Assembly (NCBI GenBank): GCA_964447405.1
Contig: CAYUSP010000003.1
Location: forward strand, 384,135 to 448,134
Source: an uncultured Nitrospiraceae bacterium
Lineage (GTDB): Bacteria > Nitrospirota > UBA9217
Direction of reading: 5' to 3'
DNA: 64,000 nt
The position numbers were made by a program, and so were the translations under genes. Positions 13,346 to 52,950 of the stretch are shown here, piece after piece (position 1 is the stretch's first letter; the number at the start of each line of letters is the position of its first letter). Under the pieces are notes generated by a model, which was not told the origin of the DNA, did no database searches, and saw only the letters and a program-made list of their open reading frames with translations.

Positions 13346-13372
13346 TATTGTCCGCTCCCGTGAATGCGATAG

Positions 13373-16542: not shown

Positions 16543-16584
16543 CTTAGTACACGGTTAATCATTTTTTAGACCCCTGACCGTTTT

Positions 16585-17353: not shown

Positions 17354-17536
17354 TCATGTGGGGCCGCAGTTCATGGAGCAGGCGTTTGCCGTTTTTCTGT
17401 GATCCAGTGGTTCATGGCACTTCTTGTACTTCTTGTTGCTGCCGCACCAGCAGGGTTCGTTCCTGCCTGGTAGCTTTTGCGGCATACCCTCGTCCCTGCT
17501 GCTGAGCAAAGCTCCAAGTTTGTCAATGATACCCAT
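17354..17536 (-). CDS. Small SEC-C motif protein
   Basis: 60 aa ORF with EPCWCGSNKKYKKCH, the SecA C-terminal-type metal-binding motif. Confidence 0.5.
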   Translation of the reverse strand: MGIIDKLGALLSSRDEGMPQKLPGRNEPCWCGSNKKYKKCHEPLDHRKTANACSMNCGPT

Positions 17537-17830
17537 TTCTCACGTCCTGCCTTCCTGAGCATCGAATCGATCACCGCTGTACACAACAAACAACAGATGG
17601 TTCGAGAATGTCACCGGTTTATGGATGGCGGATTATACCTCCCTTATCCTTTGGATGCTACAGGATTTATTAGACCAGCTTGAGAAGGTAAAGTTTTCGG
17701 GAGTTGCAGGCAGGAACTGTAATACCAAAATGATAATGTCCTAATTCGCCAAAATAGAAAAGTCCTATTCCCAGTTACTATGACTCGACCATCAAGGGAG
17801 GGCATTGTGGGGGAAAAGGATATCCTCACG

Positions 17831-17949
17831 ATGAGCAACAGGGAAACAAAACGACTCCATATCATTCATCAGGTATTGAAAAAAAAGTGACACAGGTGGA
17901 CGCAGCAGAACTTATCAGCGTTAGTTCCTTGATAGTGTTTCTTCTATGA
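17831..17949 (+). pseudogene. N-terminal remnant of an IS481-family transposase (frameshifted, truncated)
   Basis: MSNRETKRLHIIHQVLKKK then +1 frame VTQVDAAELISVS matches the HTH N-terminus of IS481-type transposases; frame broken at an A8 homopolymer (17879-17886); only about 40 codons remain. Confidence 0.55.
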
Positions 17950-17961
17950 ATCATGAATTAG

Positions 17962-18855
17962 TTACTTTGTCAGCGAATATTCATCAACAATCTCGCGATC
18001 GATCGTCATAAACTTAAATGTCGCTGTCCGTTCCCCGACTACGACAAGCATCGCCCCATAATTTCTATTATAGCGTGATTGGCTCCCGCTGACGATGGAT
18101 GTGAAATCGTAGATGGATGAACCACCCAGACCGTTTACGAAATAAGGAAAATCGTTTACCAAAATCCTTTCATAGGTATGGTCATGCCCTGAAAAAACAC
18201 AGTCTGCCCCCCACTCCTTGAATGGCCATTGCATAAAAGCATGAGACCCGTGCAGTCCTGATGAAAAGGGTGGATGATGAAAATAAACCATCTTGAAAGC
18301 TTTGCCTGATGATGATAGCTGATTTTTCAGCCAATTCGCCTGGATCGAATCAATCGCTACGCCATCCGGCTCATTGGCATCGGTATTAAGAATAAAAAAC
18401 TGAATCGGTCCCCACGTAAACGTGTAATAGCGCTCGTTGCCGGGAAGGACAAAATATTCAAAAAAGGGCTGTGCCCCGCTCGGGGAAAGCCAGTCATGAT
18501 TTCCCAGAGAGGGGAAAAACCGGTTCTCGACAGACCCTTCACCATAGGTGCCGGAATAGGGATGGATAAATTGGTGATAATATTTCCCAATATTGGCATC
18601 GATCGTTGCCTGTTCGCCATAATAATAATTATTGTCACCGGTAGTTATGATGAAATCGGGATTCCATGATTTGACGAGGTCAGACACCGCCCTGTTGGCG
18701 GGGCCATCGAGGCCATAATCTCCAATGACCGCGAACGTCGATAGTATTGATTGAGGTGGGGTATCCGATCTGTCCCGACAGGCCGGGATCAATAGGAATA
18801 CCAAACAATAAAGCAGCAACGTTGAATGCCAAAATATGCCAGGCCATCGTATCAC
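17962..18855 (-). CDS. Metallophosphoesterase (calcineurin-like / purple acid phosphatase-like), secreted
   Basis: GDYG...GDNNY...GNHD...GHDHTYER metal-ligand motifs; N-terminal hydrophobic segment with Cys. Confidence 0.8.
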   Translation of the reverse strand: MIRWPGIFWHSTLLLYCLVFLLIPACRDRSDTPPQSILSTFAVIGDYGLDGPANRAVSDLVKSWNPDFIITTGDNNYYYGEQATIDANIGKYYHQFIHPYSGTYGEGSVENRFFPSLGNHDWLSPSGAQPFFEYFVLPGNERYYTFTWGPIQFFILNTDANEPDGVAIDSIQANWLKNQLSSSGKAFKMVYFHHPPFSSGLHGSHAFMQWPFKEWGADCVFSGHDHTYERILVNDFPYFVNGLGGSSIYDFTSIVSGSQSRYNRNYGAMLVVVGERTATFKFMTIDREIVDEYSLTK

Positions 18856-19093
18856 GCGATTATGTTAATCCTTCGGGTATTCGTATTTTAAGTCTGAGCT
18901 AAACCATTGTCCGTCTGCGGAATCAATGCACCAATGAGACGATGTCGCTTATGGTGCATGGCGTCTTTCCATGCAATTTCAGCATCAACATTTCTTGCAA
19001 TGCCCTCTCTTTCTCTTCCCGTCTCAGTGGTTAATGATACCATGTTCGCATCGGTAATAGTATTGTTGCAAATCGGCAAAACATTGCAGACCA

Positions 19094-33997: not shown

Positions 33998-34241
33998 CGT
34001 CAACTCCTCCTGAATGAATGCTTCGAATTTTTCCTGCCCATATCGTGCCCCATAATAGTCAAAAGCCTTCTTAAAATCAAGGAATTTATGACTCGCTCTT
34101 GATTTTCGATATCGTCCATGTGCTTTCAGCGTTCCGTTTCAATGTTTGAATACGAAAGCATTCAAACCACAGCTGCATCGGTCATGAAATAAAAAAAGGG
34201 AGCCGCCAAACATCGGCGGCTCCCGGCGATACGTTCTATAC

Positions 34242-34535
34242 TTAGCAACCCACTGGAGCTTTTTTTGCTGGTGCTGCGGCGGCAGCTGCCTTCATGCTCT
34301 TGATCGTGTCCTTCTCGACAGTCACTTCCACCTTGTCGCCGGCCTTTACCTTGCCGAGGTCCACGGACTTATCAGCCTTCAATGTCTCGTCCTTGCCATC
34401 CATGGTGAGAACCACCGTGCCGGCCTTTGCATCAATGCTCTTAACTGTTCCCATCTTTGCACCTGAAGCAAATGCCAGCGAAACCAATGCTACAACCAAC
34501 ACTGCTGTTGCCAGAACTACTGCGATCTTCTTCAT
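34242..34535 (-). CDS. Small secreted protein (OB-fold-like), Ala/Lys-rich C-terminus ending in Cys
   Basis: GGAGGAG RBS, signal peptide MKKIAVVLATAVLVVALVSLAFA. Confidence 0.5.
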   Translation of the reverse strand: MKKIAVVLATAVLVVALVSLAFASGAKMGTVKSIDAKAGTVVLTMDGKDETLKADKSVDLGKVKAGDKVEVTVEKDTIKSMKAAAAAAPAKKAPVGC

Positions 34536-34723
34536 CTTCTCTACTCCTCCTAGAATGGATTGTAATGCTACGGAGCCGTACAATACCACAAGTTTAGCGA
34601 TTCCACAATTAAAATTTTAAATGATGCGATTTGATAATTTTGTATCACTTAATAGCATATGCTAAATCTATTAACAGCATTTAATACGAATCCCATTACT
34701 TATGTTTAGACCGTGTTTTATAC

Positions 34724-34752
34724 TTGACAGGGTATGGCAAATTTGATAGATT
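34724..34752 (+). promoter_or_regulatory. Sigma70-type promoter TTGACA-17-TAGATT
   Basis: tacTTGACAgggtatggcaaatttgaTAGATTgacc, about 50 bp upstream of the 34805 gene. Confidence 0.5.
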
Positions 34753-34804
34753 GACCGTGCTCTAAAGAAGTAAAATTTATTTCAGGAAGGGGGGTGAATC
34801 ACTA

Positions 34805-35035
34805 ATGAAAAAGATAATTGCTCTGTTTACTGCAATGGCATTTGCTCTTACCTTGGGCGTAGCATTCGCACAGGAGAAGGCAGCAGCACCGGCGGCAGCT
34901 CCTGCAAAGGCTGAGGAGAAGGCAGCACCGGCAAAGAAAGCAAAGAAGGCTGCAAAGAAAGAGAAGAAGGCTGCAAAGAAGGAAGCGGCAGCAGCACCGG
35001 CGGCAGCAGCACCGGCGGCTCCGGCTGGCAAGTAA
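34805..35035 (+). CDS. Small secreted Ala/Lys/Pro-rich protein
   Basis: RBS, signal peptide MKKIIALFTAMAFALTLGVAFA, then PAKKAKKAAKKEKK repeats; followed by a terminator. Confidence 0.55.
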   Translation: MKKIIALFTAMAFALTLGVAFAQEKAAAPAAAPAKAEEKAAPAKKAKKAAKKEKKAAKKEAAAAPAAAAPAAPAGK

Positions 35036-40668: not shown

Positions 40669-42141
40669 TTAAAAATCCAGCGGGCTCTTCAGCTCTTTAA
40701 TGGTCTTGCTCGGCACGCAGTGAGTGTAAATCATGGTGGTCCGCACATCGGCATGCCCGAGTAGGGTCTGGATCGTGCGGATATCGTAGTTGGCCTGGAG
40801 CAGATGGGTGGCAAAAGAATGACGAAACGTGTGCGTGGTTACTCGTTTTGTAAGCTGCGCTTTCTTCACGGCAATATACAGTGCGTCCTGAAATCGCGAC
40901 TCATGCACGTGGTACCGCCGCTTTTCCTTGGATGATCCGATGATTGTCAGTGATTCCTGGGGAAAGAACCATTGCCATATAAATTCCTTGGCCGCGTTCG
41001 GGTATTTCTTTTCCAATTGGTCTTCTAGAAACACGCCAGCGTATCCTGCGGCAAGGTCGTCAGCATGCTGTTTTTTCACGAACGCTCGTTGGGCGAGCAA
41101 TTCAGGCGCTATCCTGTTCGGCAGGGGCACTGTTCGGCTCTTACCGCCTTTTCCCTTAATGGTGAGCAGTCCCGAATCGAAATTAAAATCCTTCACACGC
41201 ACTTTCACCGCTTCAAAGCGACGCAAGCCACAGCCGTACTGCAGCTTGGCAATGAGCTGATAAGGCTGTCCCAGTCGTGCAAGAACCTCCTGTATCTCAT
41301 CGCGTGATAGCACAACAGGAACATAGGTGGATTTCTTCGCTCGTGGAATGTCCTTATGATCGCCGAAATCTCTTTTGAGGATGTGCCTGTACAGAAACAG
41401 CAGGGCATTAAATGCGAGATTCTGCGTCGACGAGGACACCTTGCAGCGCACCGCGAGATAAGTAAGGTAACTCTTCACGTCCTGCGGCGAGAGCTGCACC
41501 GGATCTTTATGTGACAAATAGCACTGGAATTTCCTGGTCCAGTTCGCATAATGCTGCAGCGTTTTCTTGGAGTAATGCCTCATCTTGATCTCATCTACAA
41601 GCAGACTGATGATAGTATCCCATGCAGGATACCCTGACTTTCTCAGGCAGCGCCAATCATCATACCGCCCTTGGCGACGCTCGCTGCTTCCAGTAGAGGT
41701 TGGAGAACCGGGCGGTTCGCACATCATAACGGCATCTTTCGTTGCTGCCGATAGCAACGAGCCTTGTTCACGCGTCTGCTCGGAATTACCTCGAACAACC
41801 GCATTATTAACCCTGCCATCACGAATCGATGAAGGAGCAGTCTGTTGCTTTCGTTGAGCAGCGAAGAATAGGGATACTGAGGACGCCGCCTGCTCCACCA
41901 GCACTTCTGGCTGCCCCTTGGATCGGAGTTTTTCAGAGAACAGCCTGACTTGAACCGATCTTTCCTCTGGCGGTGAATACTTTGCCTGAAAATCCAGGAA
42001 ATACCTGATCCATTTCCGGTATTCATTACGCGCAAACAGAGGAATATTGTGCGTTTTTAGAATTTCATCAAAACGAGCGAGGATTTCTGGAGGTATGCCC
42101 TTCATATCGTCGTCCTTTTGTTTCCTATCAGATAACTGCAC
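40669..42141 (-). CDS. intI: Integron integrase (tyrosine recombinase) with N-terminal extension / duplicated SAM-like domain
   Basis: Box I LQYGCGLRRFEAVKVRVKD, IntI-specific insertion (QLEKKYPNAAKEFIWQWFFPQ...RRYHVHESRFQDALYIAVKKA, cf. IntI1 [21 protein letters not shown]...RRHHMYDQTFQRAFKRAV), Box II HTFRHSFATHLL, LLGHADVRTTMIYTHCV; divergent from an attC-bearing array. Confidence 0.9.
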   Translation of the reverse strand: MQLSDRKQKDDDMKGIPPEILARFDEILKTHNIPLFARNEYRKWIRYFLDFQAKYSPPEERSVQVRLFSEKLRSKGQPEVLVEQAASSVSLFFAAQRKQQTAPSSIRDGRVNNAVVRGNSEQTREQGSLLSAATKDAVMMCEPPGSPTSTGSSERRQGRYDDWRCLRKSGYPAWDTIISLLVDEIKMRHYSKKTLQHYANWTRKFQCYLSHKDPVQLSPQDVKSYLTYLAVRCKVSSSTQNLAFNALLFLYRHILKRDFGDHKDIPRAKKSTYVPVVLSRDEIQEVLARLGQPYQLIAKLQYGCGLRRFEAVKVRVKDFNFDSGLLTIKGKGGKSRTVPLPNRIAPELLAQRAFVKKQHADDLAAGYAGVFLEDQLEKKYPNAAKEFIWQWFFPQESLTIIGSSKEKRRYHVHESRFQDALYIAVKKAQLTKRVTTHTFRHSFATHLLQANYDIRTIQTLLGHADVRTTMIYTHCVPSKTIKELKSPLDF

Positions 42142-42359
42142 AGCCGTTGTTCATTATTCGTTTTATATTATAGTGAACACCCGTTCACCTGTCAAGCGCC
42201 AAAGTTAACTTGACACCCCGCATACTATAAAATATACTCGCCTCACAAACAAAGAGTTCGGGCATCATTCTTGCTAAGTCGTAAACACCGAAAATCCGTT
42301 CTTTACGACTTATCCCTAACTCGATAATCACTGGTTAATGACTGGGTGACAATTCTTCT
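42142..42359. mobile_element. attI region of the integron
   Basis: Located between the intI start and the first cassette; contains the Pc-like promoter, a 10-bp inverted repeat AAGTCGTAAA/TTTACGACTT (42284-42322) and GTTAATG near 42333. Confidence 0.5.
42210..42238 (+). promoter_or_regulatory. Pc-like cassette promoter (TTGACA-17-TATACT) in attI, reading into the array
   Basis: acTTGACAccccgcatactataaaaTATACTcgcc. Confidence 0.6.
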
Positions 42360-43238
42360 ATGTTTGCTGACATAAAATATATTCTACCCATCACTATCGC
42401 CTTAATTGGCAATCTGCTTGTTCTTCCTGCTACTTTTGCTGCAAACGTAGACGATCAGGCTGATCGCATCAAGGCTCTGATTCAAGAACAAAAACATAAG
42501 TATGATTCATATCCCCAAAATATTGACCACGTTTATATCGATCTGAAAATTGAATATGACCGTGCTGGAATCGAAGCCGCGCTTTTATATGCCAAACGCC
42601 ACATATTAAAAACAGAAGGGCGAAATGTTGAGGCAACGCTGAGACTTGATACAACGACTGGAGCTGAAGACATCATTGCCGACCTAGAAAAGGAAGGCAT
42701 GACAAGCTTCACGCGCCTATCCCAACCGCCAATAAGTGTCAAAGGTAGAATTCCAATATCAATGCTTTGCGATTTTTCCTCAAAACTGAACCAACAGTTG
42801 AACCAGTCATACTGCTGTGCTTACATCGAGAGCGCCTCTCTGCAACCTGATTTTACTCGTCGTGATTCATATCAAAAAGAAATATCAGGCGCTTATGAAA
42901 TGTGTAGTGGTTCGATACGCTGGCCGTTACAAGTTATTGCCTACTTACAGCAAACAACTTCAAAAAGTACTGTATATGAGTTTGCAAATTTAGCCAACGA
43001 AACAATCGACGACGATAGAGTAAATGGGATTATTAATTTTGTACCGCTGAATCGCGATGATGAAGACAAATTTTATTCACTTTTAAAAGCTCATCGCGTC
43101 GAAATTATTAAAAATGACCGCAATTATAATCAGGAACTGACTGCCTTGCTTCCAATTGAGAAGCTAGTCGATTTATGTAAGAAAAAGTACGTCTTGAATA
43201 TTTTTAGACAGAGGCGCAAAGTTCTTCCAATTGATTGA
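42360..43238 (+). CDS. Cassette ORF: hypothetical secreted protein
   Basis: Signal-like N-terminus (ILPITIALIGNLLVLPATFA), 292 aa, several Cys; no family. Confidence 0.55.
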   Translation: MFADIKYILPITIALIGNLLVLPATFAANVDDQADRIKALIQEQKHKYDSYPQNIDHVYIDLKIEYDRAGIEAALLYAKRHILKTEGRNVEATLRLDTTTGAEDIIADLEKEGMTSFTRLSQPPISVKGRIPISMLCDFSSKLNQQLNQSYCCAYIESASLQPDFTRRDSYQKEISGAYEMCSGSIRWPLQVIAYLQQTTSKSTVYEFANLANETIDDDRVNGIINFVPLNRDDEDKFYSLLKAHRVEIIKNDRNYNQELTALLPIEKLVDLCKKKYVLNIFRQRRKVLPID

Positions 43239-43244
43239 CAGTGT

Positions 43245-43307
43245 GATTTTAACCTGCGCCTCGACAGCGCCGCGCTAAAAAGCGGCGCGTCAGGCGCGTG
43301 GTTAGTT
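43245..43307 (+). mobile_element. attC site 1 (family A)
   Basis: tTTTAACCTGCGCCTCGACAGCGCCGCGCTAAAAAGCGGCGCGTCAGGCGCGTGGTTAGTT. Confidence 0.75.
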
Positions 43308-43339
43308 TTTCATTTTTTAAACTTACTGAGGGTGTGTAC

Positions 43340-44605
43340 ATGCGACTACTATCTAGTCTTTTAATGGTAATCATTAGCATCTGTGCGCAACAAGTCGCGG
43401 CCTCTGAGTCGCTTACCTGGGTTGGGCCTATTACGGTAATATCTGACAAATTTGAGCAATCCGGCGGAATATTTGGGTACACTCATACTCTCGACCAAGG
43501 TGATTGTTGCTGCGGTGGGCCAGCTACAGAAGATCGGTATCCAGATCAAATCAGGGTTGATGAAAAAGGCAATATCGCTGTCGGCGATAGATGGCATCAC
43601 ATGCACCCCGATGCAAAAATTCGTGTTTTCAATTCAACTGGTAAACTCATGTCATCATTCTCACAAACGAAAGAAGGGTGTACAAGCGGAGGCTATCTTT
43701 GGCCGGGGCACATGCAATTGCGAAACAACAAGATAATAGTAGAAACGGGAAACTGTGCTCAAGTATACAATTATGACGGCAAGTTGTTATGGCATCTCGG
43801 TCGAAGTACTAATAGTTATCCGGAATTAAAGATGGTTACAGAAGACAGAATAATTTTTAGAAAATATCTTAAAGACCCTTTCGGGAAACTAGAGTCAGAG
43901 CGCAAGGATATTCAAGCCGGGTGGTTAATATATAGCTTAGACGGAAAGCTGATTGAAGAGAAATTGAACTTTGAATTACCGCAACGAAAAGAAGGGGTCA
44001 ACGTCGTCGATGGATCAAGAGTCTATTCAAATGTTCTAAAAGCGACCGGCCGTTATGGTTTCAGAATCGACAAAAACAAGAATTTAATAGTTTTTAGAGT
44101 CAATGAAAAACCTGACGATTATGAACAAATACACTCGTTTCCTGCTGGGACACTTGATATTTATGATTTATCTTCGAAATATATTTATACGATTGTATTA
44201 CCACAAAATGAGTATTCACAAAACAGATATTGTGGGGAGGGCGCATTTGCAGGTAAAGATGTAATAGCTGAATATGGCGAAGCTAAAGAAGTCGATATCA
44301 ATGGGAATATCTATCTCACCTTATTCCTTCCAACGGAACTCAAGATTATTAAATGGATTCCTTTATCCTTAAATAATCCTCTGCCAGTAGATACAATTTC
44401 TAATCTAGATAAGAAAGCGTTGCGCATTCTAAGAAATGAAATTTATGCTCGAAAAGGTCGAAAGTTCGAATCAAAAGATCTTGCTGATTTATTTTCAAAG
44501 CAGCCATGGTACACTCCGATAGATAATTACAGTGATCATTTATTATCGAAAATTGATAGGGACAATATTGATGCAATATTCGAAATCGAGCGAAAGAAAA
44601 GATAA
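43340..44605 (+). CDS. Cassette ORF: secreted protein with C-terminal YARHG-like domain
   Basis: Signal peptide MRLLSSLLMVIISICAQQVAASE; C-terminal NEIYARKGRKFESKDLADLFSKQPWY resembles the YARHG domain; GDCCCGG motif. Confidence 0.55.
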   Translation: MRLLSSLLMVIISICAQQVAASESLTWVGPITVISDKFEQSGGIFGYTHTLDQGDCCCGGPATEDRYPDQIRVDEKGNIAVGDRWHHMHPDAKIRVFNSTGKLMSSFSQTKEGCTSGGYLWPGHMQLRNNKIIVETGNCAQVYNYDGKLLWHLGRSTNSYPELKMVTEDRIIFRKYLKDPFGKLESERKDIQAGWLIYSLDGKLIEEKLNFELPQRKEGVNVVDGSRVYSNVLKATGRYGFRIDKNKNLIVFRVNEKPDDYEQIHSFPAGTLDIYDLSSKYIYTIVLPQNEYSQNRYCGEGAFAGKDVIAEYGEAKEVDINGNIYLTLFLPTELKIIKWIPLSLNNPLPVDTISNLDKKALRILRNEIYARKGRKFESKDLADLFSKQPWYTPIDNYSDHLLSKIDRDNIDAIFEIERKKR

Positions 44606-44613
44606 ATTGAAGA

Positions 44614-44674
44614 TTTACTAACCAGGCGCTCGACGGCGACGCGCCGAGGTCGGCGCGTCAGCGCCGCGTTAATC
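44614..44674 (+). mobile_element. attC site 2 (family A)
   Basis: TTACTAACCAGGCGCTCGACGGCGACGCGCCGAGGTCGGCGCGTCAGCGCCGCGTTAATC. Confidence 0.75.
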
Positions 44675-44704
44675 ACGATATATAACAAGGTTCAGAGGTA
44701 ATTC

Positions 44705-45151
44705 ATGTCAGAACATCCTTTCAACTGTCCTAGCTGTAAGCAAACATACCCAATTTTCAAGTACAGTATCGGGATGAGCGACATCCTCGAATTGCGTTGC
44801 AGTAATTGTGCAACGTCGTTACATATCGATTTATATGATCCAATAATGCTCGACCTTTATAAGAAATACGGTCAATATACAGGCGGGTTCTTCGAGAACC
44901 TATACAATTCATTAAAGCCTTGTCGTTGTGGTGGCCAATACCTCGCCGCAGCTGCTTATCGTTGTCAAAAATGCAACATTGCTGTCTCATTGGACGAAAT
45001 AAAAAAGCAGATTGGTTATAAAGGAAACGGTACTCCCGGAATAGCAATGGCCAATATAATCAATTCATCTGATACGAAGGATAACATCTGGAAAAATCCG
45101 GAGGACATCAAACCGATAAAGCGATGGTGGAAGTTTTGGCAGAAAACTTAA
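44705..45151 (+). CDS. Cassette ORF: Cys-rich (4x CxxC, double zinc-ribbon-like) hypothetical protein
   Basis: CPSCKQ...CSNCAT...CRCGG...CQKCN. Confidence 0.5.
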   Translation: MSEHPFNCPSCKQTYPIFKYSIGMSDILELRCSNCATSLHIDLYDPIMLDLYKKYGQYTGGFFENLYNSLKPCRCGGQYLAAAAYRCQKCNIAVSLDEIKKQIGYKGNGTPGIAMANIINSSDTKDNIWKNPEDIKPIKRWWKFWQKT

Positions 45152-45153
45152 AA

Positions 45154-45212
45154 TATTAACCTGGCGCTCGACAGCGACGCGCCAAGGTCGGCGCGTCAGC
45201 GCCGTGTTAGTT
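45154..45212 (+). mobile_element. attC site 3 (family A)
   Basis: TATTAACCTGGCGCTCGACAGCGACGCGCCAAGGTCGGCGCGTCAGCGCCGTGTTAGTT. Confidence 0.75.
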
Positions 45213-45227
45213 TGAGATGGAGCATAA

Positions 45228-45854
45228 ATGAAATTTATAGAATATCGCGGACAATTTCGTCTTCTTTTCCCTCGCTATGACGAGCTTGTACTATTTACGA
45301 TGAGTTTAACCTGCCTACTTCTTATGATCACTGGCGTACTATCGCATATACCAGAAATTGGAGCGGTATCCCTGAGACAACTTGATCCTGGATTTTTTGT
45401 TCCTTTCATTTTTATAGCAATATTCATAGCCGGCCTCGTGTTGTCCTTATACCATGCATTCGTTGATCGCCCTAAAACAGAGATCGAAAAATCGTTTATG
45501 TTGTTTTTTGCCGTCTTAGTTAACGTCTTCAGCGGGTTCATGGGTAGTGGTTACAGCCTTACTACAGCCAGTGGTTGGTTTATAGTTTTTCCCGTTATCA
45601 ATATGATCAATAGCATGATTCTTCTCTTTATGTGGCGATATGGGTACTTTGACGAAACAAGTATTAGCGATCAACAGGCATCAAGAGGTCAAGTCATGCT
45701 TGCAGGGACAATAGTTTTAATTCTGTTTTATTTATGTCACGTTGTTTACGAATTCTTATGGATACAAACGCTATCTGTTTGTCTTGTTTATTCAATAAAC
45801 TTTATTAGACTGATTGAATCATTGATTTTTCGACCCGTACCGATTTCTAAATGA
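45228..45854 (+). CDS. Cassette ORF: polytopic membrane protein, unknown function
   Basis: 208 aa with about 6 hydrophobic helices. Confidence 0.5.
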   Translation: MKFIEYRGQFRLLFPRYDELVLFTMSLTCLLLMITGVLSHIPEIGAVSLRQLDPGFFVPFIFIAIFIAGLVLSLYHAFVDRPKTEIEKSFMLFFAVLVNVFSGFMGSGYSLTTASGWFIVFPVINMINSMILLFMWRYGYFDETSISDQQASRGQVMLAGTIVLILFYLCHVVYEFLWIQTLSVCLVYSINFIRLIESLIFRPVPISK

Positions 45855-45864
45855 CTGCATAATG

Positions 45865-45925
45865 ATTCTAACCATTCGGCTCGAGAGGGTCGCGAAAACC
45901 GCGCCCCTCAGCCGAGCCGTTATCT
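45865..45925 (+). mobile_element. attC site 4 (family B)
   Basis: TTCTAACCATTCGGCTCGAGAGGGTCGCGAAAACCGCGCCCCTCAGCCGAGCCGTTATCT. Confidence 0.7.
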
Positions 45926-45984
45926 TCATAGATTGTTCTACGTGACTGACGAATTCTGATTTTGCATAAGGAAAAATTCAGCTT

Positions 45985-46875
45985 ATGGTGCACCGTACAG
46001 CGTTCATTGTCATTTTGACCCTATTCTTATTTCCTTTCGCCGTACACGCCCGAGATGATTTCAAAATGGCCAATCTTGTTTATCCTTCCGAGAATCAAAT
46101 TACCCAAGCCCAGCTGACCCCACTAACAGCAGTAGAGTTGAAAAAAGAAATTCAGAACTCAATCGAGTTGCCAACCGAAAACTGTTTAGATCACGTCAAA
46201 ATGAAAATCGAGGACGATTCTATTGAGGAGTATCTATGGGGTTTTTATAAGTATGATTTTTCAGGCGATGGAATCGATGATTTGATATTTATCAGCTATT
46301 GTGGTGGTGAAGAGTATCAAAACTTTATTTGGATAAAGAAAGACAACAAATTCTATTACAGTGGCCTCCTATGGGGTACGATTGTCAAATTGTATCGTGC
46401 CCAAGACTTGAAAGCCTTATCGGTCGTAACGCGTGGCGGCTGGTGCTGTAGCGGCTATGTCGGATACATTAACCTGTATACACCTTCAAGCAATAATCAA
46501 GTCACAAAATATTCCTTAGAGAAAAGCGTCCGAGAATTCGGTGGCATTACATTGCCGGATAAAAGAATTCCCGCTAAGCGGTTCGTTGTGAAAAACGATA
46601 AATACAAACTGCGGGAACAGCCTATTATTAATGATAAGTATGATGAGCAGGAGAGTGAATTTGAACGCAGACCTGTTTATGGGAATACTTTGGCAGAATT
46701 CGTTAAGGGAAGCAAAGGCGAAGCCATTGCTGAAAAAACTGACGAAACCGGGCGGGTTTGGTGGTTCGTCATCATGGACCCAGATGCTAAGGCCACCTAT
46801 AATAGATTTTACGGCGATCAAAAAGCTTCAAAAGCCGGCTGGATGAGTTCAAGGTTTTTAGAAATGACGAAGTGA
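45985..46875 (+). CDS. Cassette ORF: hypothetical secreted protein
   Basis: Signal peptide MVHRTAFIVILTLFLFPFAVHA; 296 aa; stop overlaps attC. Confidence 0.5.
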   Translation: MVHRTAFIVILTLFLFPFAVHARDDFKMANLVYPSENQITQAQLTPLTAVELKKEIQNSIELPTENCLDHVKMKIEDDSIEEYLWGFYKYDFSGDGIDDLIFISYCGGEEYQNFIWIKKDNKFYYSGLLWGTIVKLYRAQDLKALSVVTRGGWCCSGYVGYINLYTPSSNNQVTKYSLEKSVREFGGITLPDKRIPAKRFVVKNDKYKLREQPIINDKYDEQESEFERRPVYGNTLAEFVKGSKGEAIAEKTDETGRVWWFVIMDPDAKATYNRFYGDQKASKAGWMSSRFLEMTK

Positions 46876-46931
46876 TAACCTGGCGCTCGACAGCGACGCG
46901 CCAAGGTCGGCGCGTCAGCGCCGCGTTATAT
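46873..46931 (+). mobile_element. attC site 5 (family A)
   Basis: TGATAACCTGGCGCTCGACAGCGACGCGCCAAGGTCGGCGCGTCAGCGCCGCGTTATAT. Confidence 0.75.
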
Positions 46932-46962
46932 GGTAATAAAAAATACCGACTCCGGAGATGAA

Positions 46963-47238
46963 ATGGAATTAACAAAACAAGAGCGAAAGTTCGCTGAATT
47001 ATCAACTAAACGGTATCGCGGTTTATTGTATCGAAACAGCCAATTGATCGGATGGGTCGGTGTTGTTCTCTTTGGGCTCGGCTTACTGCGGATATTGCCA
47101 GTATCTGCTACCGTTCAAAAATTACTTCTTCAAGGTGGTTTTTTTCTAATCGTAATGAGTACAATTATGTTCGCGATGACTATTATAAGTAAGCTTTACA
47201 CCCGTAATCAGGAACTTGATCGATCGCGACCGGATTAA
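46963..47238 (+). CDS. Cassette ORF (first of a two-gene cassette): small 2-TM membrane protein
   Basis: GGAG RBS; MELTKQERKF...two hydrophobic helices. Confidence 0.45.
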   Translation: MELTKQERKFAELSTKRYRGLLYRNSQLIGWVGVVLFGLGLLRILPVSATVQKLLLQGGFFLIVMSTIMFAMTIISKLYTRNQELDRSRPD

Positions 47239-47275
47239 GACGTAATGGTAAAGAAAACTTTTGCGGGAGGGAAAT

Positions 47276-47737
47276 ATGACCACTAAGAACGTTCGTGCAA
47301 TCGGTTTTTTACTTCTCCTGATATTTATTATCTCCCTCTACGCCTTATATCTGCTTACCCAGGACAAAACTCCTGAAAATTACCTTTTCTTTGGGTTTAC
47401 TTCTCTAACGTTTATCATCATATATTCAATCAGCATTTTAAATTACAAAATCACAGGTTCTAGTATCGGTATCGAAGTTGAACAAGCACGACAGGAGATC
47501 ATGACTTCAAAAAAGGAAATTGAGACACTAGCGAATACCTTGATCAAGGTGAGTTATGTCATTGCAGATGGGTCTAGCAGGTTTGGCGGCATGCCAAAAG
47601 AACATCAAGATAAGATCAGGGAATATCAAAATTCAATAAAAACATTTCTTGATCAAAACATTGACGAGGAAGTCAAGAAGACCATCTCTGGTTTAAATGA
47701 AGCAATAGACCTGCGAATTAATAAAGACAAGAAATAG
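47276..47737 (+). CDS. Cassette ORF (second of two-gene cassette): membrane-anchored coiled-coil protein
   Basis: GGGAGGG RBS; MTTKNVRAIGFLLLLIFIISLYALYLL then a helical soluble domain; no attC between it and the previous ORF. Confidence 0.45.
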   Translation: MTTKNVRAIGFLLLLIFIISLYALYLLTQDKTPENYLFFGFTSLTFIIIYSISILNYKITGSSIGIEVEQARQEIMTSKKEIETLANTLIKVSYVIADGSSRFGGMPKEHQDKIREYQNSIKTFLDQNIDEEVKKTISGLNEAIDLRINKDKK

Positions 47738-47744
47738 CGAGATA

Positions 47745-47804
47745 CAATAACCTGCCGGTCCACAGCGACGCGCCAGAAGGCGGCGCGTGACCGGCGCGTT
47801 AGGT
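47745..47804 (+). mobile_element. attC site 6 (family A)
   Basis: CAATAACCTGCCGGTCCACAGCGACGCGCCAGAAGGCGGCGCGTGACCGGCGCGTTAGGT. Confidence 0.75.
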
Positions 47805-47813
47805 AGGTAAAAT

Positions 47814-48353
47814 ATGAAGAAAAGAATAATATTCTTATTTGCCGCAATCCTTCTTATTTCTTCTTACAGTCAGGCCGAATCTCGTATAAACTTTCCCACA
47901 TATATCCCTGGTAAATATAGACCCTGTCTCGAAGCGTGGCTATCAGCCCATCCATCATATCGTATTGCGATCGAAACAGATTGCACGTATTGCGATAACA
48001 GCATCAAAGACATGAGAACGAAACCTTATGGGGATTGGAAACCTTTACCTGATTATCAACCCTATTTTACAGTCGGTGATTTCAATTCGGATAGCGTTGA
48101 TGATTTTGCCGTTGCAGTAATAGACGAACTCAAAAGAGATAAGAAATTCCGCATCCTGGTCTTTAATGGCCCTTTCAATACATCATCTCTTTCAAAGCCG
48201 GCTTTTGTATCTGGTCCGATCGATTTAAGCAACGCAGGCATGTTCTACGGAGGCCCTCGACCGAAACCATGGAGACTATTAGCTGGGCCGTTTGAGTCTG
48301 AAGGAACCTTGCTGGTGCCTCAAGGAAAAACATATAAGTGGGAAAGTAAGTAG
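47814..48353 (+). CDS. Cassette ORF: hypothetical secreted protein
   Basis: Signal peptide MKKRIIFLFAAILLISSYSQA. Confidence 0.5.
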   Translation: MKKRIIFLFAAILLISSYSQAESRINFPTYIPGKYRPCLEAWLSAHPSYRIAIETDCTYCDNSIKDMRTKPYGDWKPLPDYQPYFTVGDFNSDSVDDFAVAVIDELKRDKKFRILVFNGPFNTSSLSKPAFVSGPIDLSNAGMFYGGPRPKPWRLLAGPFESEGTLLVPQGKTYKWESK

Positions 48354-48358
48354 TCTGA

Positions 48359-48418
48359 ATCCTAACACTCGCGTCGAGAGGGTCGCTAAAAAACGCGCCC
48401 CTCACGCGCTCGTTAATT
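48359..48418 (+). mobile_element. attC site 7 (family B)
   Basis: ATCCTAACACTCGCGTCGAGAGGGTCGCTAAAAAACGCGCCCCTCACGCGCTCGTTAATT. Confidence 0.7.
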
Positions 48419-48456
48419 CTGGATAGCATCTCATTTTCATCGCAAGCTTAAAATAT

Positions 48457-48885
48457 ATGGAAATAATAAACGGCAAAATATTGACCCGCGAACAAATAGA
48501 TTCGATTAGTTCAACAATCCGAAAAGCTTATTTAGCACTTGTATGGTTTTCTGGGATCGATCTTGCCTTTAATATTTTCAAAGTTGCTAATCCTCTTTCA
48601 CACGGCGGGATTATGGAAGCGGGGCTAAAATTCGCTGAATTTATCATCATATATCGTGGTTTAAAGATTCGAGCATCTTGGCTCATTCCTTTAGTGTTAA
48701 TCTCCTCGGTTTATACGCTGTTTAGTGCTTTCTTTATTTCAATGGAGCCTGCAAAAGACATTGCGGAAATTATAGCTAAACCAGTAGGCATGTTGTTGGT
48801 CGTTTTTTCTGTATATCAACTTATATTTTTTTCAAAGACTGAAGTCAGGTCATCATTTGGTGCGAAAGGATTTAATGTTTTTTAA
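48457..48885 (+). CDS. Cassette ORF: hypothetical membrane protein
   Basis: 142 aa, about 3 hydrophobic helices. Confidence 0.45.
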   Translation: MEIINGKILTREQIDSISSTIRKAYLALVWFSGIDLAFNIFKVANPLSHGGIMEAGLKFAEFIIIYRGLKIRASWLIPLVLISSVYTLFSAFFISMEPAKDIAEIIAKPVGMLLVVFSVYQLIFFSKTEVRSSFGAKGFNVF

Positions 48886-48912
48886 CTGCTCTGATCAATA
48901 AAGTAATATGAT

Positions 48913-48970
48913 AATTAACCTGCGGGTCGAGTGAGTCGCGAAAAGCTCGCTCCTCACCCGCGTGTTAGTG
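48913..48970 (+). mobile_element. attC site 8 (family B variant)
   Basis: AATTAACCTGCGGGTCGAGTGAGTCGCGAAAAGCTCGCTCCTCACCCGCGTGTTAGTG. Confidence 0.7.
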
Positions 48971-49087
48971 CTTAATAATGCCCATTCCAACTTGGACAGA
49001 TTTTTTGTTAAATTCAGAGTGTGGTTTTCGCTATAAACTTTTGAATTTGCACTTGGTCAGCTACGAATTCATTTGTGGGGCTATAAC

Positions 49088-49513
49088 ATGAAAATAATAC
49101 TTCTATTGCTATTGACTTTTTCGCTATTCACATCGATTGCATTATGTGCAGGCAAAATAGGTCAGTTAGGCCTGTTTGATTCATCTTATGATCGTACTGT
49201 TTGGCAATATGTGGAATCTTCAGGGGGTGTAGACATATTTGAGCATAGGTTCTTAAAGAACTGTAATTTATATTCAGCGGTCATTACGGAAACATTTGAG
49301 GAAGAGGCTAAGAGGACTGAAGCTTTATTCGAAGGCAAGACTTACTACGTAACGAAAGGCCTTAAAGATGGCAAATTAATTTCATTATACTATTGTAAAA
49401 AAGGTTCTCCTTTTCAATGTCTTCGGGTATATGTTGCCAATGTTAGCGATATCAATGCATGCACCCAAGCCTCGGAAAAGGTAATTATCGACTACGAGCG
49501 AAGAAATAAATAG
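49088..49513 (+). CDS. Cassette ORF: small secreted Cys-containing protein
   Basis: Signal peptide MKIILLLLLTFSLFTSIALCAG; a 118-bp spacer lies between attC8 and the ATG. Confidence 0.5.
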   Translation: MKIILLLLLTFSLFTSIALCAGKIGQLGLFDSSYDRTVWQYVESSGGVDIFEHRFLKNCNLYSAVITETFEEEAKRTEALFEGKTYYVTKGLKDGKLISLYYCKKGSPFQCLRVYVANVSDINACTQASEKVIIDYERRNK

Positions 49514-49570
49514 CCTAACGTATAGTTCGAGAGGGTCGGGCTCGGCCCGCCCCTCAACTCGTTGTTATTT
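49513..49570 (+). mobile_element. attC site 9 (family B)
   Basis: GCCTAACGTATAGTTCGAGAGGGTCGGGCTCGGCCCGCCCCTCAACTCGTTGTTATTT. Confidence 0.7.
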
Positions 49571-49582
49571 CCGTGAGGAACA

Positions 49583-49807
49583 ATGGGTAACAGACGCGAT
49601 TCATTTCCGTTTCGATATCCTCAACTGTTTCACGAATGTTGGCATTGCCATACCGTAGGGCTGAAGCCGGGCATCCTTGATACAAAGCATGGTGATTACG
49701 GCATGCGAAAAGTATTTAAGGATGAACCAGAATTGCCGCTAAATTCTGAAGGTCTCTGTTTGGATTGCGCAGAACAATTAAAGACCAAGAAAGAGGATGC
49801 CAATTGA
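49583..49807 (+). CDS. Cassette ORF: small zinc-ribbon-like protein (CWHCH...CLDC)
   Basis: 74 aa; HECWHCH and GLCLDC motifs. Confidence 0.45.
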   Translation: MGNRRDSFPFRYPQLFHECWHCHTVGLKPGILDTKHGDYGMRKVFKDEPELPLNSEGLCLDCAEQLKTKKEDAN

Positions 49808-50169
49808 AGCAAACCAATTTTCTGAAGATCTGCTGGCACGACGGAAATATCGTCGATTTTAGATACATCTTCCCAATTACCAAAAGAGATAGGCCCTGCA
49901 TCATCATTAAAGCCGAAGTTTATGCGAATTATATTAATGCTGCTCATAGGCATTTGATCCAAATTGAATTTCCAAATATTCAAAACATAGATAAGAAGGT
50001 CAATTTTCCTGAAATTAAAGATAATGTGGTCGCAGGGTCAATCAATTACGCTAAGCCAAAAGAAATCGTAAATAGCCTTGGTACTTTTCAAGAATACACA
50101 TTCACTTTGTTTGGTGGCAAAATCAAAATCGTTTCAAACAAAGCCAAAATAAAGAAAATTATGAAATAA
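49765..50169 (+). CDS. Cassette ORF: hypothetical protein overlapping and likely translationally coupled to 49583-49807
   Basis: Open +1 frame; possible starts ATG 49765 (43-nt overlap) or TTG 49804 (TTGA start/stop overlap); no family. Confidence 0.4.
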   Translation: MRRTIKDQERGCQLKQTNFLKICWHDGNIVDFRYIFPITKRDRPCIIIKAEVYANYINAAHRHLIQIEFPNIQNIDKKVNFPEIKDNVVAGSINYAKPKEIVNSLGTFQEYTFTLFGGKIKIVSNKAKIKKIMK

Positions 50170-50222
50170 CCTGGCGCTCGACAGCGACGCGCCAAAGTCG
50201 GCGCGTCAGCGCCGTGTTGTAA
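50165..50222 (+). mobile_element. attC site 10 (family A)
   Basis: AATAACCTGGCGCTCGACAGCGACGCGCCAAAGTCGGCGCGTCAGCGCCGTGTTGTAA. Confidence 0.75.
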
Positions 50223-50238
50223 AGCAAAAGGAATCTAT

Positions 50239-50979
50239 ATGACCTATCGACAAATAATGTTATTTTTATTAGTGGCGACCCAACTTACGCTATCAAGCTG
50301 CGCTACATACTATGCACATGAGAGCATTCAAAATTTACCCAAATATGATCCTTCGAGGTTTCCCTATCTCATTGAAGGTGAATATTTAGAAGTAGCCAGT
50401 CAAGGGAATATATCATTTCAACACTACTACTTCCCGACTTTCCCATGGCCCGCATGGCATGGTCAACACATGCACTTATTTCTTTCGGAAACGCAAACAG
50501 AACCCATCGTGATTAATATGGATAAGCGCTTATCTGTAAAAGAGCCAATAATCTACTTTTACAAGGAAAGCAAGCGAACTCTCATAATAGATAAGACAAA
50601 TAGCGTCAAAAGCAAAGCACTCCTCTACGTATATCACCAGTCAGGAGAGGTGGACCTCAAAGATATTATCAAGAATACAGCCACTCAAGCTTTAGGTTCA
50701 GATAATGAAGTTCCTCTTGTGACACTTTCCTATAACAAAAATGGTGAGCAATCCATCTTCTCTGTTGGAAAGATAGTACGTCATGGCGGTTTGATTGAGT
50801 CACCTACCTTGAAGGGACTTTACATGCTTCATACTAGCCCTTATCAAAGCCGATGGAGACATCCACTTGATTATTGGCTTTATATCGTTACGGTCCCGGG
50901 CGATGTAGTTACCTCTCCATTACAACTACCATTCTGGATTTATACGTATTATCAAAACAGAGGATTGTCACCCAAATAA
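50239..50979 (+). CDS. Cassette ORF: hypothetical lipoprotein
   Basis: Lipobox LTLSSC after the N-terminal hydrophobic segment; 246 aa. Confidence 0.5.
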   Translation: MTYRQIMLFLLVATQLTLSSCATYYAHESIQNLPKYDPSRFPYLIEGEYLEVASQGNISFQHYYFPTFPWPAWHGQHMHLFLSETQTEPIVINMDKRLSVKEPIIYFYKESKRTLIIDKTNSVKSKALLYVYHQSGEVDLKDIIKNTATQALGSDNEVPLVTLSYNKNGEQSIFSVGKIVRHGGLIESPTLKGLYMLHTSPYQSRWRHPLDYWLYIVTVPGDVVTSPLQLPFWIYTYYQNRGLSPK

Positions 50980-51043
50980 GGCTAATATTATTAATCACTA
51001 TTTAGGATCGGGTAGCGAGTAAATCATAATTTTGAAACAAAGG

Positions 51044-51100
51044 ACCCAACATGGGGATCGAGAGCGGCGCGAAAGTCCGCGCCTCATCCCCGTGTTGTCA
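51044..51100 (+). mobile_element. attC site 11 (family B)
   Basis: ACCCAACATGGGGATCGAGAGCGGCGCGAAAGTCCGCGCCTCATCCCCGTGTTGTCA. Confidence 0.7.
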
Positions 51101-51122
51101 ACTCAACACAAAGGAGGTTCAT

Positions 51123-51473
51123 ATGCATTACGTCGATGGATTTGTGATACCGTTACCGAAGAAAAACCTGAAAGTATATACCCGAATGGCCAGGATGGGA
51201 AAAGAGATGTGGATGAAGCACGGCGCCATCGATTATAAGGAGTGCGTTGGAGAGGATTTGGAGAGGACGGGGGGGACGACTTTTTCACGACTGATGAAGT
51301 TGAAGCCCGGCGAGACCGTGGTTTTCTCATGGATCGTTTACAAGTCCCGGGCGCACCGCGACCGCGTCAATGCAAAGGTGATGAAAGAGATGGAAAAGAT
51401 GAGCCTGGAGGAGATGCCCTTCGACATGAAACGCATGGTGTATGGCGGTTTCAAGGTCCTCGTTGACATATAG
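51123..51473 (+). CDS. Cassette ORF: DUF1428 (YbaA-like) family protein
   Basis: AAGGAGG RBS; MHYVDGFVIPLP...GETVVFSWIVYKSRAHRDRVNAKVM...MPFDMKRMVYGGFKVLV matches the DUF1428 pattern. Confidence 0.65.
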   Translation: MHYVDGFVIPLPKKNLKVYTRMARMGKEMWMKHGAIDYKECVGEDLERTGGTTFSRLMKLKPGETVVFSWIVYKSRAHRDRVNAKVMKEMEKMSLEEMPFDMKRMVYGGFKVLVDI

Positions 51474-51486
51474 TATTTCATCACGG

Positions 51487-51539
51487 AACATAACAAGCGA
51501 GTGAGTCGCGAGGAGCACGCTCCTCACCAGCGTGTTGTC
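51487..51539 (+). mobile_element. attC site 12 (family B variant)
   Basis: ACATAACAAGCGAGTGAGTCGCGAGGAGCACGCTCCTCACCAGCGTGTTGTCA. Confidence 0.7.
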
Positions 51540-51588
51540 AGTGATAAATTTGAATATTGAAAATATGACGCAGAAGAGGGAACTTATT

Positions 51589-52011
51589 ATGCATTCACCA
51601 TCTGTATCTGTGGAAGAACTGAATGACATCCTGGCAGGCACACCATTTCTAAAGCCATATGGGTTTATTGTAAAGGCATGTGCTCCAAACGAGTGCACGC
51701 TACTTGTTCCGTTTATGCCTTCGCTCGAGCGACCAGGGGGGCTGGTCAGCGGCATGATGTTAATGGGAGCGGCGGACGTCGCAATGTGGCTTGCAATCAT
51801 GACTCTTCGGGGAACGAGTGAGCGTTGGGTTACTTCGGACATGAAAACAGCATTTCTGCGGGGTGCCAAAGAGGAAGACATCCTGTGTACGGCTCGCGTG
51901 CTCAAGCCCGGAAAGCGCAGCATGTACGGCACGGCTGAGTGTCATGGTGCAACAACTGGCCTGGTAGCTCACCATGTCCTCACATATGCAAAGATTGAAC
52001 CCGCAGGATGA
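51589..52011 (+). CDS. Cassette ORF: hotdog-fold thioesterase (PaaI/YbgC-like)
   Basis: MHSPSVSVEELNDILAGTPFLKPYGF...GGLVSGMMLMGAADVAMWLAIM is typical of PaaI-type thioesterases. Confidence 0.55.
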   Translation: MHSPSVSVEELNDILAGTPFLKPYGFIVKACAPNECTLLVPFMPSLERPGGLVSGMMLMGAADVAMWLAIMTLRGTSERWVTSDMKTAFLRGAKEEDILCTARVLKPGKRSMYGTAECHGATTGLVAHHVLTYAKIEPAG

Positions 52012-52047
52012 ATACCGCGACTCGAAAACCGCCAAAAAGAAAATAAA

Positions 52048-52110
52048 TGATAACATGCGCGTCCACAGCGACGCGCCAAAGGGCGGTATACATAAATTTA
52101 AGTTAAGAGA
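52048..52110 (+). mobile_element. attC site 13, truncated (right arm replaced)
   Basis: GATAACATGCGCGTCCACAGCGACGCGCCAAAGGGCGG then unrelated TATACATAAATTTAAGTTAAGAG; lacks the GGCGCGTGACCGGCGCGTTA half. Confidence 0.5.
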
Positions 52111-52119
52111 GGTGTCAAG

Positions 52120-52824
52120 ATGACAGATAAACAGCAATTGGATCATACTTATCACTACATAATGAAAACCTTCATAGATCGAGGCAATGCACCTCACTTT
52201 ACAGAGATAGCGAAAGAGTTTGGCGTAAACCCAGCTGAAGGCAAGAAATTGCTGTATGATTTGATGAATACGGGAATGGCAATGTGGCTTTATCCCGGAA
52301 CCGACCTAATTGCTTCATTTGCACCATTCAACAATCAGCCAACTCAATATCGCATTACTGTGGACGGACAACAAAGATGGTTTGCACAATGAGGTTTTGA
52401 AGCCCTGGCGGTCTGCTGGGCATTTCCACGAAAAGCAGTGCAGATTGACGCGCCATGTTTAGATTGCGGCGAGTCTATGAAAATCGTTGTGCGCGACGGC
52501 ATCATAGAAATTGAATCGCCTATCGGCATCCATGGATATATTGACATTCCTTTAAGTCAATGGGCAAAAAACTGGCCTTTTACGTGAAGTCGCATCCATC
52601 TCTTCCGGTCGGAAGATCATGTAAAAAACTGGTCCGACTTTCGTACAGGAACTGAAGAGGCAATTCTTCCGATCTCGGATGTCATGTCCATAATGAGCAC
52701 ACCCCGTCACAGTGCTAAATTGAGTGGTCATTACATCTCATCTGCTGCGGATTATGCGCCGCTATTTTTCCAGAGACTCAGGGAAGTAACGCGAAATTCA
52801 GAATTCTGGAAGCCCAAGTCGTAG
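52120..52824 (+). CDS. merB: Organomercurial lyase (MerB)-like protein with two in-frame TGA codons at the catalytic-Cys positions (candidate selenoprotein; alternatively a pseudogene)
   Basis: Single frame from ATG 52120 to TAG 52822-52824; TGA at 52390-52392 and 52585-52587. Translation: HTH N-terminus, ...VDGQQRWFAQ-U-GFEALAVCWAFP (MerB: RRLYAWCALDTLIFP) and ...NWPFT-U-SRIHLFRSEDHVKNW (MerB: SFCCHVHFFASVPTAEDW); U-U spacing 65 aa vs 63 in MerB. Confidence 0.6.
52402..52421 (+). ncRNA. Candidate bacterial SECIS hairpin 1 (cis-element within mRNA)
   Basis: CCCUGGC-GGUCU-GCUGGG, loop GG at +18/+19 from the UGA. Confidence 0.4.
52601..52616 (+). ncRNA. Candidate bacterial SECIS hairpin 2 (cis-element within mRNA)
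   Basis: (U)CUUCC-GGUC-GGAAG(A), loop GG at +20/+21 from the UGA; the loop GGUC is identical to the E. coli fdhF SECIS apical loop. Confidence 0.4.
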
Positions 52825-52895
52825 AGGGCAAAATCTGCCGTGTACGAATAGGGATATGTAGGTCGGGTAGAGCAAGGAGAAATCTGACACAATGA

Positions 52896-52950
52896 TCCCA
52901 ACATCGCTGTCGAGAGGGTCGTAAAAAAAGCATGCCCCTCACGGCGGCGA
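52896..52950 (+). mobile_element. attC site 14, degenerate (terminal, eroded right arm)
   Basis: ATCCCAACATCGCTGTCGAGAGGGTCGTAAAAAAAGCATGCCCCTCACGGCGGCG, then diverges (no GTTGGG core). Confidence 0.45.

Follow-up and report, generated by a model that had tools for sequence, protein, structure and literature searches.

Evidence for a complete chromosomal integron with a long-form integrase in a Nitrospirota bacterium

A 64,000-nt stretch of contig CAYUSP010000003.1 (assembly GCA_964447405.1), from an uncultured Nitrospiraceae bacterium, carries a tyrosine recombinase gene that diverges from a run of small genes separated by palindromic repeats. We call this whole stretch of analysed DNA the window. 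The locus raises the question of whether recombinase, repeats and genes together form an integron and, if so, of what kind. The original prediction, made from the DNA letters, was of a complete chromosomal integron. Supported on every structural test that we ran, this reading is very probably correct: the Nitrospirota bacterium possesses an integrase gene (intI), an attI site, a cassette promoter (Pc) and cassettes bounded by attC sites. The array was confirmed as 10.6 kb of plus-strand DNA (42335-52949) that is divergent from intI and holds 13-14 cassettes and 16 co-oriented open reading frames (ORFs). Apart from an extra domain in its integrase (IntI), the integron is an ordinary example of a well-known kind.

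The minus-strand ORF at 40669-42141 matched the TIGR02249 model, named 'integron integrase', with 356 bits against a cutoff of 265 (residues 180-489; model positions 4-313 of 315), and its Pfam matches were Phage_integrase and Phage_int_SAM_4. The cutoffs of the XerC and XerD models were not reached. Aligned with the Vibrio cholerae integrase VchIntIA (PDB 2a3v, residues 13-307, E value of 1e-72), IntI showed no large gaps over ~295 residues and retained the full catalytic R-K-H-R-H-Y set, found in the motifs GLR, GKGGK, HxxR (HTFRH), LGH and IYTH. These residues were invariant across 25 homologues. The IntI-specific segment, GVFLEDQLEKKYPNAAKEFIWQWFFPQ, aligned without gaps to VchIntIA 190-225. 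Thus, the alignment check that had been proposed for the catalytic residues found all of them, and both the intact integron-type recombinase and its IntI-specific insertion were borne out. The predicted extent of the gene needed one correction. While a GTG-initiated frame reaches 42141, all homologues begin at the ATG at 42105, which on this comparison is most likely the true start, giving a protein of 478 amino acids; a protein of this length (P0001) is 100% identical to IntI.

Between the co-oriented plus-strand ORFs lie 12 intact attC sites of 53-61 nt. The bottom strands of these sites fold as hairpins (-9 to -23 kcal/mol, z scores of -2.0 to -6.7), and a single consensus structure, consisting of a 4-bp R box, a 2-nt unpaired spacer in each arm, a 6-bp L stem, a bulge, 3 bp, a second bulge, 3 bp and a loop, fits both of the sequence families into which sites had been sorted. 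We adopted this fold because of covariation between the families and not on the basis of energy. Across the window sites, 93% of alignment cells are paired, compared with 29-47% when the 3' partners are slid, 10 of the 16 pairs show compensatory changes, and none of 500 shuffles matched this. Counting inwards from the outermost base of the R'' heptamer, the two bulges are C16 and A20 on the top strand and extrahelical G16 and T20 on the bottom strand, to which family A adds T24; the bottom-strand fold and extrahelical bases that the original prediction had asked to see confirmed are therefore present. Extrahelical bases at the same positions have been reported for VCR2 and attCoxa2 (PMC5027507).

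A covariance model built from the 12 window sites, run unfiltered over both strands of the 64 kb, recovered the 12 intact sites at 48-80 bits and found no attC outside the array. The best other match (16503-16544; 16 bits, E value of 0.06) was treated as chance. The count of 14 sites given originally holds if two decayed sites, whose degenerate state had been overlooked, are included. The first is a half site with no complementary 3' arm downstream and no bottom-strand hairpin of R and L boxes, and it was not recovered by the covariance model at E values up to 10. The second, at the end of the array, lay outside the training set and was matched at 52902-52949 with 32.5 bits over model positions 10-56 only. 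The description of the sites required similar adjustment. They are imperfect palindromes as stated, and the flanking heptamers given as RYYYAAC...GTTRRRY reduce to YAAC...GTTR. Although uniform in length, the sites have a mean pairwise identity of 69% (range 53-94%); of the two supposedly homogeneous families, family A is indeed tight (85-94%), whereas members of family B are less alike (75-80%) and three sites stand apart as outliers.

Could these repeats instead be repetitive extragenic palindromic (REP)-like or terminator-like elements, unrelated to a Xer-type recombinase that happens to adjoin them? They are GC-rich hairpins at gene ends, and attC1 and attC3 account for 4 of the region's 13 matches to a terminator pattern. 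However, the recombinase passes the integron-integrase model while missing the XerC and XerD cutoffs, and no copy of the repeats lies in the remaining 53 kb of the window. The repeats are strictly in one orientation, and have AAC/GTT ends and asymmetric extrahelical bases. Furthermore, when applied to ~1 Mb of DNA surrounding related intI genes, the same covariance model identified 24-28 attC sites in ten other genomes, all of these sites lying upstream of intI in the opposite strand, that is, on the attI side. In the 28 independent sites from these 10 genomes, 93% of cells are paired and 14 of the 16 pairs are compensatory, with the caveat that this alignment was fitted to the model and so somewhat favours its structure. 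On the grounds of linkage to intI and covariation in independent sites, we rejected the REP-like explanation, which we regard as extremely improbable; the search for repeats unlinked to intI, proposed as a means of refutation, returned none in the rest of the window and only intI-linked ones in the ten genomes.

We compared the window with three loci (L083, L084 and L085) whose IntI proteins are 80-84% identical to that studied here. Conservation runs from intI through ATCACTGG and a following TT, after which each locus carries a different cassette. Because conservation stops right after GGTT, the attI crossover is placed between G42334 and T42335. Upstream of this point, two promoters stand back to back and are the top two sigma-70 matches in the 11-kb region. 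Pc, the near-consensus TTGACA-17-TATACT promoter already predicted to point into the array, is present with 11 of 12 consensus bases and is kept in L083, L084 and L085. The divergent promoter of intI (PintI), which the original prediction had overlooked together with the palindrome in its spacer, is kept in these loci and in L049, L021 and L088. The palindrome follows a GAAC-N4-GTTC pattern that occurs once in the 64-kb window, and in the closest Nitrospirota relatives only is it kept, 50-90 nt upstream of intI. It is a candidate operator of the LexA/Cheo-box type, and, by analogy with other integrons, SOS control of intI would be a reasonable inference.

An 11-bp inverted repeat, TAAGTCGTAAA-N16-TTTACGACTTA, is also present at 42275-42312 on the plus strand, in the stretch of conserved leader that separates Pc from the attI crossover. 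This hairpin is partly kept in L083-L085, with one compensatory pair among the four sequences, and could be an RNA leader hairpin or accessory sites for IntI. No Rfam family matched the whole window at gathering thresholds or the attI region at E values up to 1.

The analysis demonstrates the anatomy of genes and sites, the attC fold, the attI junction, the promoter sequences with their conservation, and the tie between this attC type and related intI genes. From the sequence, we infer recombination activity, SOS control, expression from Pc and any role of the additional IntI domain. In the mechanism that we propose, IntI would be transcribed from its consensus promoter and, with an operator in the spacer, would probably be repressed until a stress signal of the SOS type. 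The enzyme would recognize the folded bottom strand of the attC hairpin through the R box, the 2-nt spacer, the L stem, G16/T20 and the short loop, excise cassettes by attC x attC recombination and, at the G42334/T42335 junction of attI, insert them. The array would be transcribed from Pc, so that expression would be strongest in the cassettes nearest attI. Secreted, membrane or zinc-ribbon ORFans are encoded by eleven AT-rich cassettes (40% GC, compared with 53% for the genome), while three distal genes (DUF1428, a thioesterase and a MerB-like selenoprotein) lie behind decayed attC sites and are probably fixed.

Several observations weigh against this reading. The unpaired central spacer of the attC sites is 2 nt, where 5-6 nt is usual (PMC5027507), and for family A the fold of minimum energy is not the consensus one but a competing hairpin that has a 7-nt bulge. 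The covariance model was derived from the window's own sites and is not the general IntegronFinder model, and the LexA assignment of the PintI operator is a matter of motif resemblance only. The last two attC sites are decayed. Finally, the only other copies of the array that we found (L001 and L002, which cover cassettes 1-3) show no difference from the window, so that no shuffling was observed.

The last two points also bear on whether the integron, although structurally intact, is frozen, with a fossil array whose genes are read from Pc or from their own promoters. The identity of the first three cassettes extends across separate sequencing runs, and attC12, in which part of L'' is missing, has a weak fold (-9.2 kcal/mol, z score of -2.0). 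Against a frozen state, IntI is complete, its catalytic residues are all in place and its promoter is perfect, and eleven attC sites keep their pairing through compensatory changes. In addition, cassette content differs wholly between related integrons, and the cassettes retain a foreign GC content. On balance, we consider a frozen integron unlikely.

The chromosomal setting is clearer than the label sedentary, which the original prediction had attached to it. The integrase lies on a 760-kb NCBI contig and the integron sits between typA and a DUF3617 gene, with a DUF1499 gene, a hydrolase gene and an ADH gene as further neighbours. DUF1499-typA synteny is common to relatives. TypA, encoded directly upstream, is 89% identical to proteins named Nitrospirota, and the closest named relatives of IntI are also from Nitrospirota. 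L088, a relative whose TypA is 95% identical, encodes at the same position next to typA a long IntI (12595-14028) that is only 60% identical, while in two relatives with TypA identities of 92% and 90% (L089 and L090) this position is taken by DoxX and other genes, with no integron. IntI proteins that are 80-84% identical sit in other genomic neighbourhoods.

These last two patterns might be expected of a mobile integron carried by a transposon, a genomic island or a plasmid-derived segment, and the array is also shorter than the 19-attC threshold that is used to call an integron sedentary. However, we found no transposase, resolvase, relaxase or insertion sequence (IS) genes flanking the integron, the adjoining synteny on the long contig is conserved, and the relative closest by TypA has an integron at the same locus. 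IntI is also not a member of the PRK15417 integron-integrase equivalog (254 bits, under a cutoff of 435), a model that we take to describe mobile IntI of the class 1 type. A mobile origin is therefore very unlikely in our estimate. Cury et al. (2016) regard an integron as sedentary if it has more than 19 attC sites or is present in 100% of the genomes of a species. With 12 intact and 2 degenerate sites the array falls below that number, and with the PRK15417 score and flanks free of mobility genes it does not belong to mobile classes 1-5 either, so that by these criteria the element is neither demonstrably sedentary nor mobile. The prediction of a chromosomal integron thus stands, while its sedentary nature is not established by 12-14 attC sites with a mean identity of 69%.

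The feature that sets this integron apart is the length of its integrase. IntI is ~165 amino acids longer than VchIntIA or the TIGR02249 model, an N-terminal extension that had been overlooked. Alignment of homologues divides the extension into three parts: a conserved domain of ~88 residues (the N-domain), a variable linker of ~60 residues and a conserved YDEWRCLRK motif that enters the normal SAM-like domain. The N-domain is encoded in 77 of 80 species-representative loci, from Nitrospirota, Desulfobacterota, anammox Planctomycetota, Gammaproteobacteria and the Verrucomicrobia/Kiritimatiellota/Lentisphaerae group, and its profile matched 2163 cluster representatives at E values up to 1e-3. 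Searched against the PDB by sequence only, the profile gave no significant match (best XerA, E value of 1.6), and alignment with the SAM-like domain of IntI itself by hhalign gave an E value of 0.015 at low probability. Kinship with the core-binding domain becomes clear only through fold comparison, from which the full-length AlphaFold2 model of IntI was left out, being poor in the catalytic domain (predicted template modelling score of 0.31). On the modelled fold, the N-domain is predicted to be a duplicated core-binding (SAM-like) domain.

It is possible, albeit doubtful, that IntI belongs to a large cross-phylum clade of apparently undescribed 'long' integron integrases in which a second core-binding domain on a flexible linker of ~60 residues makes the enzyme heterobivalent. 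A heterobivalent role resembling that of lambda Int is speculation. If it were true, the N-domain could bind accessory attI sites or a second DNA arm, altering the assembly or regulation of the attI x attC synapse. The similarity to lambda Int is a functional analogy: both proteins are tyrosine recombinases in which an extra N-terminal domain of DNA-binding type (predicted in the case of IntI) is joined to the core-binding and catalytic domains by a flexible linker, while the arm-binding domain of lambda Int has a different fold. We found no description of a natural N-terminal domain of integron integrases in a small sample of the literature, and the term 'N-terminal' is absent from the text of Cury et al. 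(2016). The long form, with its apparently duplicated core-binding domain, is widespread and directly testable in existing recombination assays.

Table 1. Coordinates within the window of the integrase gene, its regulatory region, the attC sites and the cassettes.
Feature	Position	Strand	Evidence
intI, long-form integron integrase, 478 amino acids	40669..42105	-	TIGR02249 match, VchIntIA alignment, homologue starts
Extra N-terminal four-helix domain of IntI (residues 1-88), predicted second core-binding (SAM-like) domain	41842..42105	-	
Variable disordered linker of IntI (residues 89-150)	~41656-41841	-	
PintI, TTGACA-17-TATAAT, 12/12 consensus bases, into intI	42167..42195	-	promoter scan, conservation
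Palindrome GTGAAC-ACCC-GTTCAC filling the PintI spacer, candidate repressor operator	42173..42188	.	GAAC-N4-GTTC pattern
Pc, TTGACA-17-TATACT, 11/12 consensus bases, into array	42210..42238	+	promoter scan, conservation
attI region and cassette-transcript leader; recombination point G42334/T42335 (CACTGG/TTAATG)	42239..42340	+	end of conservation
Cassettes 1-12 (last base of each: G of the R' box of an intact attC), with 14 co-oriented ORFs	42335..51534	+	
Ends of cassettes 1-12	43301, 44668, 45206, 45919, 46925, 47798, 48412, 48964, 49564, 50216, 51094, 51534		
attC1	43247..43307	+	hairpin z score, covariation, covariance-model score
attC2-attC6	44616-44674, 45154-45212, 45866-45925, 46873-46931, 47745-47804	+	
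attC7-attC12	48360-48418, 48913-48970, 49513-49570, 50164-50222, 51044-51100, 51488-51540	+	
Terminal block, two former cassettes now fused: 4HBT thioesterase (51532-52011) and MerB-like gene	51535..52949	+	Pfam, no R' box between genes
Half attC remnant; R''/L'' arm 72% identical to family A, 3' arm lost	52048..52081	+	
MerB-like predicted selenoprotein gene, 234 codons, in-frame UGA at 52390-52392 and 52585-52587	52120..52824	+	PF03243, E value of 1e-16
Truncated terminal attC; R'', L'' and L' recognisable, no R' GTT; end of array	52896..52949	+	

The cassettes are distinguished by their composition. In cassettes 1-11, the GC content is 0.37-0.43 (~0.40 over 42-51 kb), compared with 0.53 in the rest of the window, and it returns to 0.55-0.61 beyond the terminal attC. 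The distal genes behind the decayed attC sites (51095-52949) have 47-50% GC, which is consistent with the cassettes at the far end being older, ameliorated or host-derived. Among the 16 ORFs, six have N-termini resembling signal peptides (one with a lipobox), four encode membrane proteins and two encode Cys-rich proteins resembling zinc ribbons. The prediction that most cassettes encode secreted, membrane or Cys-rich proteins without an assignable family thus holds for the majority and fails for four, which belong to the YARHG, DUF1428, 4HBT thioesterase and MerB-like families in Pfam. As predicted, the array contains no known antibiotic-resistance gene. PADLOC defence models found nothing credible in 15 cassette proteins, the only match (Cas5d, E value of 0.005) being treated as chance. 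When six of the cassette proteins were looked up among 15 billion proteins, they either fell in clusters of one or two sequences or were absent. When all cassette proteins were compared by tblastn with 82 related loci, matches came from L001 and L002 alone, the two identical copies, and no cassettes were shared with other loci. The cassettes constitute a small reservoir of secreted and membrane ORFans.

Two cassettes, 6 and 10, each contain two ORFs. In cassette 6 these are small membrane ORFs lying 22 nt apart, and in cassette 10 (49583-50169, plus strand) a 74-residue Cys-rich ORF and a 134-residue ORF with a TTG start overlap by 43 nt. Neither pair contains a recognized toxin-antitoxin or defence family.

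At its far end, the array carries a gene that had been listed as a 90-residue ORF and that is instead a MerB-like frame of 234 codons reading through two UGA codons. The two UGAs stand at what appear to be the positions of the MerB catalytic cysteines (Cys96 and Cys159). A hairpin with a GGUC(U) apical loop lies at +21 to +26 after each UGA, with a bulged U17 in the first. These hairpins resemble the selenocysteine insertion sequence (SECIS) of E. coli fdhF, which was folded for comparison. Both UGA codons, with the same hairpins after them, recur at the same places in a homologue with 44% identity (L091), an observation that rules out a pseudogene and argues for an intact selenoprotein gene with two predicted selenocysteine (Sec) codons. 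In a second homologue (L086), the first of these positions is Cys and the second is UGA. Gene callers cut the gene to 90 or 155 amino acids or read UGA as Trp.

The protein shares the MerB fold family (PF03243) and a Sec codon near the second catalytic Cys position with SaoL (NF040728), which appears among the known selenoprotein families of prokaryotes (PMC13188914). It scored 40 bits against the SaoL model, under the cutoff of 140, and runs ~80 residues past the end of the 159 model positions. SaoL has one 'CU' motif, whereas the window gene has two Sec codons in Q-U and T-U contexts. The gene thus appears to encode a two-Sec relative of the SaoL family that lies below its cutoff, and this MerB-like two-selenocysteine family is a useful lead.

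Set against known systems, the window integron resembles that of Vibrio cholerae in its homologous integrase core, which shares the catalytic residues and insertion of VchIntIA, in the divergence of intI from a co-oriented array, in its chromosomal location and in its mostly unknown-function cassettes. The extrahelical G16/T20(/T24) pattern matches that of Vibrio VCR2, and in both systems the attC sites of an array are related to one another in a 'house style'. In contrast, VchIntIA lacks the extra N-terminal core-binding domain and linker (~165 amino acids), and the unpaired central spacer of 2 nt and mean attC identity of 69% depart from the Vibrio sites. The Vibrio array has ~180 cassettes (compared with 12-14 in the window) and attC sites of ~130 nt (compared with 53-61 nt) with identities above 80-90%. 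Unlike in Vibrio, we recognized no toxin-antitoxin cassettes in the window array.

Class 1 integrons share the architecture and presumed mechanism, and their attC sites, such as attCaadA7, are likewise short (57-70 nt). A further likeness is that PintI overlaps a palindrome of repressor type, comparable to the LexA box of class 1 intI1, reportedly described by Guerin et al. in 2009. Here, however, Pc lies in the spacer between intI and attI and not inside intI, the operator is of the GAAC-N4-GTTC and not the CTGT-N8-ACAG type, and there is neither a Tn402/Tn21 context nor a resistance cassette. To our knowledge, no Nitrospirota integron has been characterized; the window provides a well-delimited example with exact attI, Pc, PintI and attC coordinates, and shows that the attC geometry known from the literature (extrahelical G16/T20) extends to a distant lineage despite a much shorter unpaired spacer.

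Outside the integron, the window has other islands of low GC content (0.38-0.48) at 4001-5000, 15000-19000 and 34000-35000, which contain no attC-like sites (best match of 16 bits). These islands hold an OsmC-like gene (4537-5025), two ORFs without a Pfam family (15669-17217) and a metallophosphoesterase gene.

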